NCBI RefSeq assembly: GCF_003334335.1
Contig: NZ_QOWQ01000196.1
DNA length: 410 nt
DNA from: Escherichia coli
GTDB taxonomy: Bacteria; Pseudomonadota; Gammaproteobacteria; Enterobacterales; Enterobacteriaceae
Reading direction: 5' to 3' (one strand)
Shown: piece after piece, positions 1 through 401 of the stretch
Position numbering within the stretch: the stretch's first letter is position 1
Layout of the letters: each line of letters starts with the position of its first letter
Made by a program: the position numbers and the translations under genes
Notes under the pieces: generated by a model
The model's input: the letters and a program-made list of their open reading frames with translations, nothing else
Database searches by the model: none
Told to the model about the DNA's origin: nothing

Positions 1-401
1 GCAAGCACCTCATTTTTTGTTGGGGTGCTTTTTTTCAATTCAGCGATATAGCACTCCAGTTTTTCAATGCGTGATTCGATATCATCTTTTTCTGACAGTA
101 TCGTGTTATATGCATTGTTAATTTGTATGGTATACCGATCTTCGGAACAAAGGCACTTTTCCTGTGACTGTTCATCCCCTTCACATAACCCGGCAGCAAT
201 ATCCATGAAAAACTGCTTCGCCTTCTTTTTCGCCTCAGCTTCGTAAAACTCCAGCGGGGCACCTTCAACACGATCAAGATCAATCACCACATTTGGCAAC
301 AACAGTGACGTATACCCACCCGTTTCCAGCGCTACAGTAACAGTAATCTTATCCGGGTAATTATTTATCCCTTTAACAACCAGTTCGTATTGTTTATTCA
401 T
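1..401 (-). CDS. Hypothetical protein, 5' portion only (start codon in window, 3' end beyond left edge). Visible product (133 aa): MNKQYELVVKGINNYPDKITVTVALETGGYTSLLLPNVVIDLDRVEGAPLEFYEAEAKKKAKQFFMDIAAGLCEGDEQSQEKCLCSEDRYTIQINNAYNTILSEKDDIESRIEKLECYIAELKKSTPTKNEVL...
   Basis: Manual reverse-complement translation: ATG at plus coordinates 401..399, then 133 sense codons with no stop down to position 3 (2 nt left over at 1..2). An in-frame TAG at 405..407 fixes this ATG as the first possible start. An open frame this long in AT-leaning DNA is unlikely by chance. The protein has a non-random make-up: alternating hydrophobic beta-like segments, an amphipathic Lys/Ala helix and a heptad-spaced Ile/Leu helix. 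Codon choice (CTG, CCG, GCG, AAA) looks like a Gram-negative enteric-type gene, but that is impression only. Not in the ORF track, consistent with the track needing an in-window stop. Confidence 0.78.
   Translation of the reverse strand, partial: MNKQYELVVKGINNYPDKITVTVALETGGYTSLLLPNVVIDLDRVEGAPLEFYEAEAKKKAKQFFMDIAAGLCEGDEQSQEKCLCSEDRYTIQINNAYNTILSEKDDIESRIEKLECYIAELKKSTPTKNEVL
5..35 (+). terminator. Intrinsic-terminator-like hairpin plus T-tract on the plus strand, embedded in the minus-strand coding region
   Basis: Plus-strand stem 5-11 (gcacctc) pairs with 22-28 (ggggtgc): 6 Watson-Crick pairs and one G-U wobble. Loop 12-21 (attttttgtt), followed immediately by T7 at 29-35. The loop is larger than in typical strong terminators (8 nt if a12:t21 also pair), so stability is only moderate. 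The orientation would terminate rightward transcripts entering from the left edge. Confidence 0.25.

Follow-up and report, generated by a model that had tools for sequence, protein, structure and literature searches.

This locus raises the question of why a hairpin followed by an unbroken run of seven T, in the form of a rightward-reading Rho-independent terminator, should lie within a gene encoded on the opposite strand. The window (the whole stretch of Escherichia coli DNA analyzed here, 410 nt) carries on its minus strand a reading frame that begins with an ATG at 401–399 and runs open to the left edge (133 codons, MNKQYELVVKGINNY...AELKKSTPTKNEVL in translation), and the hairpin lies antisense within this frame, as the initial annotation had described. 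The explanation that we favor, with a probability of roughly 0.75, is that the hairpin and T7 represent the Rho-independent terminator of a moron cassette that was inserted backwards, and that this is now a relic or back-up terminator in the lineage of the window. The features concerned are as follows.

1–35, plus strand: putative 3′ end of the cassette, i.e., the last 2 nt of a 22-nt spacer and the terminator, as judged from contig L113 (99.3% identical) and from the intact genes of L098–L107, which have an equal 3′ end; the gene remnant would lie left of the window edge.
3–12, plus strand: 5′ arm of the predicted terminator stem, AAGCACCTCA (MFE fold, kept pairing).
13–20, plus strand: loop of 8 nt, TTTTTTGT (MFE fold).
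21–30, plus strand: 3′ arm of the predicted terminator stem, TGGGGTGCTT (MFE fold, kept pairing).
29–35, plus strand: T7, the predicted U-tract of the terminator and right boundary of the mobile cassette, also Lys-Lys codons of the minus-strand frame (sequence, homology limits).
1–401, minus strand: first 133 codons of the DUF1327/YdfR-family gene between S and R, comprising the N-terminal domain and variable linker and open at the left (translation, PGAP, Pfam, PHROG).
405–410, minus strand: last codon (GAG) and stop (TAG) of the class II holin S gene; the holin CDS at L001 2852–3067 maps onto window position 405 onward, and its product ends ...AARGE.

The stem was originally proposed as 7 bp between 5–11 and 22–28. 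All of these pairs are present in the sequence (G5-C28, C6-G27, A7-T26, C8-G25, C9-G24, T10·G23, and C11-G22), and the MFE fold extends the stem to 10 bp (3–12 with 21–30), including five G-C pairs and one U·G pair. This is the stable, G+C-containing stem-loop expected of a Rho-independent terminator, and the expected U-tract is supplied by the seven T directly 3′, which overlap the last two stem pairs. The plus-strand fold has a free energy of −15.5 kcal/mol, as compared with −5.3 ± 1.9 for 200 dinucleotide shuffles, none of which folded as well (0/200; z = −5.35); an outcome no better than shuffled controls, which the initial annotation had named as a possible refutation, was thus far from being observed. 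Free energies of about −15 kcal/mol appear typical of E. coli and phage intrinsic terminators, for which an 8-nt loop appears to be at the long end. A consensus scan returned the hairpin as the sole terminator-like site in the window, with 0.3 expected under loose criteria. An alternative plus-strand hairpin at window 21–64 (stem about 21–59, TTGGGGTGC...GCACTCCAG followed by T5, −14.2 kcal/mol) would reuse the 3′ arm of the terminator; this probably reflects chance, as it is missing from the MFE fold of 1–70 and is not conserved outside the S-R gene.

Since the element lies within an open ORF and its T7 reads as Lys-Lys on the coding strand, it could in principle be a coincidence, a by-product of Lys AAA codons and of chance complementarity between Ser-Thr-Pro and Glu-Val-Leu codons. 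Synonymous recoding of the overlapping peptide AELKKSTPTKNEVL, using codon usage drawn from neighboring phage genes, reproduced a fold of equal stability in 0.47% of 20,000 sequences; a T run of at least six after a hairpin of −15 kcal/mol or better was recovered in 7/20,000 (0.035%). This rarity among recodings indicates that the combination of hairpin and T run exceeds chance and is forced neither by the protein sequence nor by the Lys codons.

By BLAST comparison with complete genomes of E. coli and with phage records, the window falls within the lysis cassette of lambdoid prophages of the Stx type. PGAP annotation of relatives gives a local order of holin S, DUF1327/YdfR-family gene, and lysozyme R, all on the minus strand of the window, so that the plus strand is antisense to the phage late operon. 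The minus-strand protein belongs to a real but highly mosaic family (PHROG 1085, 2091, and 406) with an N-terminal DUF1327 domain, a linker of very variable length, and, in full-length forms, a conserved C-terminal domain (EWECNRPSFVV...YLKVRI). Pfam DUF1327 (PF07041) corresponds to residues 1–112 of a 329-aa relative (E 1e−44) and is present in 120/120 listed homologues of the window's protein; the hairpin falls outside this domain, within the variable linker or tail. NCBIfam returned no matches for any of the proteins, and literature searches combining DUF1327 with holin and ydfR with holin found no papers.

Among the loci examined, nearly all from IMG/VR, intact forms of the S-R gene encode 329 aa (13 loci), 296 aa (27 loci), or 268 aa (12 loci). 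The hairpin is confined among these intact forms to the 329-aa type, where it sits mid-gene in a segment of ~37 codons (STPTKNEVLAADEMKE...LQQPEKK) that neither the 296-aa nor the 268-aa type possesses. Forms shorter than these, of 176, 197, and 211 aa, stop soon past the hairpin and are flagged by PGAP as 'missing C-terminus'. The window itself is mosaic: positions 54–410 are 100% identical to allele L001, and 1–96 are ~98% identical to L002–L006. Another intragenic mosaic joint, common to L001 and L009, is observed at window 97–150, where a variant of the DUF1327 domain 14 aa shorter (..EKCLCSEDRYTIQINNAYNTIL..) replaces ..EKRPIILEAQDVLITYRGKLPGIITGSLKTPPTAL...

The strand on which the hairpin acts can be addressed from its pairing. 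The corresponding minus-strand RNA forms a weaker hairpin (−11.2 kcal/mol, z = −4.4) with no U-tract after it, and the late transcript is therefore not expected to terminate there. Additionally, the U·G at 10:23 is invariant and pairs on the plus-strand RNA only, being a C·A mismatch on the minus strand; together with the weaker minus-strand fold, this points to the plus strand as the RNA strand. These observations bear on a sense-strand interpretation, under which the A7 run and hairpin on the late mRNA would signal frameshifting or slippage within the DUF1327 gene or affect the stability of its mRNA. That the minus-strand RNA folds at all is in keeping with such a signal, a −1 shift in the A run would meet a stop 8 codons on, after ...KKKHPNKK, and changes in homopolymer length split the ORF at a sister hairpin (hp2, described below) in L008 and L090. 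However, a canonical slippery heptamer has the form X-XXY-YYZ, which G-AAA-AAA does not match, and the hairpin starts without a spacer, within the A run itself, rather than 5–9 nt downstream as a −1 frameshift structure would; frameshift or slippage was rejected on this geometry. The invariant mismatch on the minus strand and the conservation of the hairpin where the minus ORF is absent likewise make any sense-strand signal exceedingly improbable.

A candidate for the gene served by a plus-strand terminator is found in relatives of the window. In L002, a plus-strand ORF stops 22 nt before the hairpin, and its match to phrog_18136 reaches the end of the profile (E 7e−41). The family comprises genes of 85–91 aa; the intact form in L098 (1265–1540, 91 aa, ribosome-binding site AAGGAA) matches phrog_18136 with an E value of 4e−52, and Pfam gave no match for this 91-aa product. 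A homologue 58% identical, with an equal stop position, was identified by tblastn as CDS0002 of Escherichia phage CharmingMan. Here the hairpin (AAGCGTCTCTT-TTTTAT-GAGGGGCGCTT, then T7) again lies 22 nt past the stop, in the intergenic space between convergent genes. The phrog_18136 gene stops exactly 22 nt before the hairpin in 17 related S-R contigs, in CharmingMan, and in L108–L112, and an IMG/VR search with the two proteins found the same spacing in 20/20 loci. Pairwise dN/dS for the gene is 0.13–0.3 with dS up to 1.4–1.7; it is a real gene under purifying selection, and synonymous sites are saturated between its lineages. In CharmingMan and in the five IMG/VR contigs L108–L112, the minus-strand frame across the hairpin spans no more than 55–61 codons, stop to stop, making the hairpin intergenic and plainly non-coding there; no long minus ORF crosses it in L092 or L108–L112.

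In an alignment of 10 distinct homologous sequences, 96% of cells retain the pairing of the stem. Both sides have changed at three pairs: 7:26 from A-U to G-C, 8:25 from C-G to U-A or U·G, and 12:21 from A-U to U-A. These are the compensatory changes expected of a terminator stem, in a small sample drawn from three diverged lineages. The covariation score was reached by 13/500 shuffles and the count of double-changed pairs by 64/500, and every slid control scored lower. The loops of the homologues differ in both length (6 to ~10 nt) and sequence, and their U-tracts are T6–T7 or TTTTCTTT. The initial annotation had taken the large loop to argue for weak function; against this, the hairpin has been retained across lineages with saturated synonymous sites.

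The remaining point in favor of coincidence is that five copies tolerate stem mismatches that also change amino acids. On the other side, few synonymous recodings reproduce the element, and in CharmingMan and L108–L112 it lies outside long ORFs, always 22 nt past a stop codon and with stem changes that compensate each other; the segment is, moreover, missing from the 296-aa and 268-aa protein alleles. The Lys-codon explanation offered at the outset is accordingly rejected, and coincidence in general is scarcely credible. The five mismatched copies all lack an adjacent cognate gene: an uncompensated mismatch (T26C in four, G25A in one) occurs in 5/31 relic copies versus 0/17 beside the cognate gene, a trend that is not significant (Fisher p 0.10). 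Such mismatches are consistent with relaxed constraint on the relic copies.

The limits of the shared sequence suggest that gene and hairpin travelled together. Homology between the S-R context and the phages L108 and CharmingMan spans L098 1171–1595 and ends inside the T run, and homology to a cassette-free 296-aa allele (L010) resumes at L098 1591. The segment so defined is ~425 bp, with a G+C content of 0.40–0.42, as compared with 0.54 for holin and lysozyme and 0.45 for the interrupted S-R gene. By these limits, the hairpin is the 3′ boundary of a ~425-bp cassette whose junction with the host gene lies in the T-tract, i.e., in the Lys-Lys codons of the linker (ELNKK or ELKK). A cassette bounded in this way by its own terminator fits the definition of a moron (PMC3594210).

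At the other end of the cassette, a 47-nt 5′ element shows 83% conservation despite the saturation of dS. Its sequence, CCCTGG..TAAG..TTCAGCCCGyCAGTGGTGGG(A)CACTGGCG with a CCAGTG/CACTGG stem, is observed at L098 1171–1216, L092 583–629, L108 ~1048–1095, and L001 2050–2095; it precedes both kinds of plus-strand gene found at this locus and occurs also in CharmingMan (83% identity), and no promoter consensus was seen in it. Scans for sigma-70 promoters upstream of the plus-strand genes returned nothing convincing. Past the stop codon of the cassette gene, the spacer motif TTCTTT is kept across diverged lineages. A palindrome, AAGAAT-NN-ATTCTT, spans this stop codon in diverged phages (L108 1390–1412, L092 925–947) and is partly retained (AAGAA..TTCTT) in the S-R context, where it lies just to the left of position 1. 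In seven contigs the cassette gene is 5′-truncated by a 100-nt deletion between CAAAGATAA direct repeats. In this L002-type gene (L002 2241–2290 vs. L098 1243–1352), the ribosome-binding site and the first ~33 codons have been lost; it is probably a pseudogene that still holds its terminator.

Whether the window's own lineage retains the cassette gene depends on sequence to the left of position 1. Exact-pattern searches for the window's mosaic junction in IMG/VR, GTDB genomes, and JGI metagenomes gave no match, and the left flank is therefore read from L113. This contig, reached by a protein search that returned P0001 (197 aa, 99% identical), matches all 410 nt at 99.3%. In L113, the cassette gene is reduced to its last 21 codons (...QAAEDALSTVKRSLDAPRDQE-TAG), ending at −20 in window numbering. 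Farther left are a second plus-strand hairpin, hp2, at −118 to −93 (ACGCCGCG-N10-CGCGGCGT, then T5CTT; about −17 to −19 kcal/mol), and a different plus-strand gene of 86 aa (phrog_2572), which ends at −140. This gene is annotated as hypothetical or as 'DUF1823-containing', though its Pfam match to DUF1823 is weak (E 0.04). The hairpin of the window would thus follow a 21-codon remnant, with the nearest complete gene ending 140 nt upstream. In L113 the minus ORF reaches its stop at −192, 64 codons beyond the window edge, and it continues for 29 codons in L002 and 196 codons in the 329-aa alleles; the expectation that the minus-strand gene stopped just beyond the edge is not borne out.

A census of ~48 hairpin-bearing contigs, with duplicates removed, comprised 10 with an intact cognate gene, 7 with the 5′-truncated gene, 6 of the L113 type, and 25 of the 329-aa type. 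None of the 25 contigs of the 329-aa type has a plus-strand gene, so the hairpin there may do nothing.

The sister hairpin hp2 varies among these arrangements. It is present also at L006 ~1085–1112 and L001 ~2416–2444, and lies ~110 nt left of the window (−118 to −88 on the L113 reverse complement). Its stem is perfect (ACGCCGCG/CGCGGCGT) in 6/6 loci with the 86-aa gene and imperfect (ACGCAGCA) in 24/24 loci of the 329-aa type; the two stem differences are synonymous in the minus ORF (..QFAAF..). Relative to the intact allele, L008 (~899–1000) lacks 1 nt, and the T8 run of hp2 is the point at which its ORF is interrupted (...PEKNAAMSS...), dividing the 329-aa ORF into 194 + 134 aa; the ORF of L090 is likewise split at hp2. 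The break in L008 could be homopolymer slippage or a sequencing error.

These flanks bear on whether the hairpin is still the primary terminator of an active gene, as would be the case if an intact (as in L098–L107) or 5′-truncated (as in L002) phrog_18136 gene lay directly left of position 1. The arrangement exists in 17 related contigs, and window positions 1–96 are ~98% identical to sequences of this kind. However, the only relative with the full mosaic of the window, L113, has the 21-codon remnant, hp2, and the 86-aa gene instead, and the best proteins that join the window's N-terminal variant to the hairpin segment (P0001, P0002) are 197 aa long and end ...FAAFYDYCIEVTRRNFVKAFEESKSLQ, the tail found in L113. 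A primary role in the window is thus unlikely, and the reduction of the cognate gene to its last 21 codons argues for a relic or second terminator in L113. The original proposal of a terminator for a convergent transcript from the left, with a plus-strand gene ending shortly before position 1, therefore holds for the origin of the hairpin, as seen in the 17 contigs, and fails for its primary role in the nearest relative, where only the remnant and then the 86-aa gene are found.

The history that we propose begins with a moron cassette comprising the conserved 5′ element, the phrog_18136 gene (85–91 aa), the 22-nt spacer, and the hairpin with its U-tract. This cassette would have entered the linker of the S-R gene of Stx-type lambdoid prophages in the orientation opposite to the late operon. 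Later recombination in the lineage of the window may then have deleted most of the cassette gene, leaving the last 21 codons, spacer, and terminator, which now form, in antisense, part of the open tail of the DUF1327 gene. Transcription arriving from the left should still be halted by the hairpin as it folds on the plus-strand RNA. In an L113-type arrangement, such transcription could come from read-through of the 86-aa gene past its own hairpin, hp2, or from spurious antisense initiation, and the window's hairpin would serve as a second, tandem or back-up terminator that prevents antisense transcription from reaching the DUF1327 domain and the holin gene. We infer from the sequence comparisons both that termination takes place at the hairpin in vivo and that the lysogen produces plus-strand transcripts.

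A further, rather doubtful possibility is that the terminator, together with the 3′ portion of the moron gene, was co-opted in frame as ~37 linker codons of the otherwise conserved 329-aa protein while remaining an antisense terminator. If true, the same DNA would act both as a translated linker and as an insulator shielding the holin gene from anti-late transcription, and morons could be exchanged by recombination in the terminator T-tract, i.e., in the Lys-Lys codons.

The remnant and hairpin might instead form the 3′ end of an Hfq-type small regulatory RNA. A stem-loop with a U-tract is the usual 3′ end of an sRNA, the spacer motif past the stop codon is conserved in diverged lineages, and Stx prophages are known to carry convergent sRNA genes opposed to the late operon, namely AsxR and AgvB (PMC4104026) and PasA/C/D and Esr41 (bioRxiv 10.64898/2026.05.13.724894). 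However, Rfam searches of the window and three relatives at E values up to 1 gave no match at the hairpin, which corresponds neither in Rfam model nor in map position to the known prophage sRNAs (AsxR, AgvB, Esr41, STnc100, Pas); these map between Q/stx/esterase and holin rather than between S and R. Additionally, promoter-like sites were found neither in the interval from hp2 to the hairpin nor in the rest of the window. An sRNA is on this evidence very unlikely, and the initial suggestion of an antisense or attenuation element found no support. As a separate observation, the interval separating the DUF1378 and esterase genes of L004 contains, on the plus strand at 2790–2866 and opposite to the late operon, an Esr41-like stem-loop with a U-tract, which scores 29.5 bits against Rfam RF02676, far short of the gathering score of 102; the esterase-holin region has known Pas and anti-sRNA genes.

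Under the preferred reading, a relic or back-up terminator, the strong terminator inside this gene would be what is left of a cassette that was inserted, and then partly deleted, within the mosaic lysis region of Stx-type prophages. The tails of DUF1327/YdfR ORFs in hairpin-bearing alleles would then be chimeric, the antisense of a terminator and a gene remnant, which may explain the PGAP 'missing C-terminus' flags on many of these genes. On the other strand, an unannotated family, phrog_18136, and its putative terminator are located between S and R. For prophage biology, this would place anti-late units with terminators inside the lysis cassette, in addition to those known upstream of the holin.

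As compared with the intrinsic terminators of E. coli and its phages, the hairpin of the window has the same general form, with a 10-bp G+C-containing stem, seven U directly after it, placement 22 nt past a stop codon, and compensated pairing. It differs in lying inside an ORF of the opposite strand and in having had its cognate gene largely deleted, and its termination is predicted. The lambda bor-type arrangement, in which a gene expressed in the lysogen is transcribed against the late operon beside the lysis genes, offers a positional parallel: a small gene opposes S-R-Rz, and its transcription must stop before the lysis genes. The cassette gene, however, has no sequence relationship to that system and lies between S and R rather than after Rz.

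The antisense sRNA genes of Stx prophages share with the cassette an anti-late orientation, intrinsic terminators, and a position in the late region of the same prophage group. They differ in that the cassette occupies the S-R interval, while theirs is the Q/stx-esterase-holin interval upstream of the holin; no sequence or Rfam similarity was detected, and the cassette encodes a protein under purifying selection.

A further parallel is with the morons of lambdoid phages, additional genes that bring a promoter and a terminator of their own (Cumby et al., 2012, PMC3594210; Juhala et al., 2000, as cited in PMC4104026). Like these, the cassette is extra DNA absent from sister alleles (296 and 268 aa), has its own putative terminator and ends exactly at it, and occurs in unrelated phage contexts. 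Its lower G+C content is plain against the flanking lysis genes and slight against the S-R gene that it interrupts. Unlike them, it sits inside the linker of a gene rather than between genes, is oriented against the late operon, has no sigma-70 promoter that we could find, and has had its 3′ end absorbed in frame into the host ORF. Judged by its sequence, the element has the characters of an intrinsic terminator and most of those of a moron cassette. Although previously unannotated, it belongs to a well-known kind; the modest twist is the in-frame absorption of a terminator and a gene remnant by a neighboring ORF.
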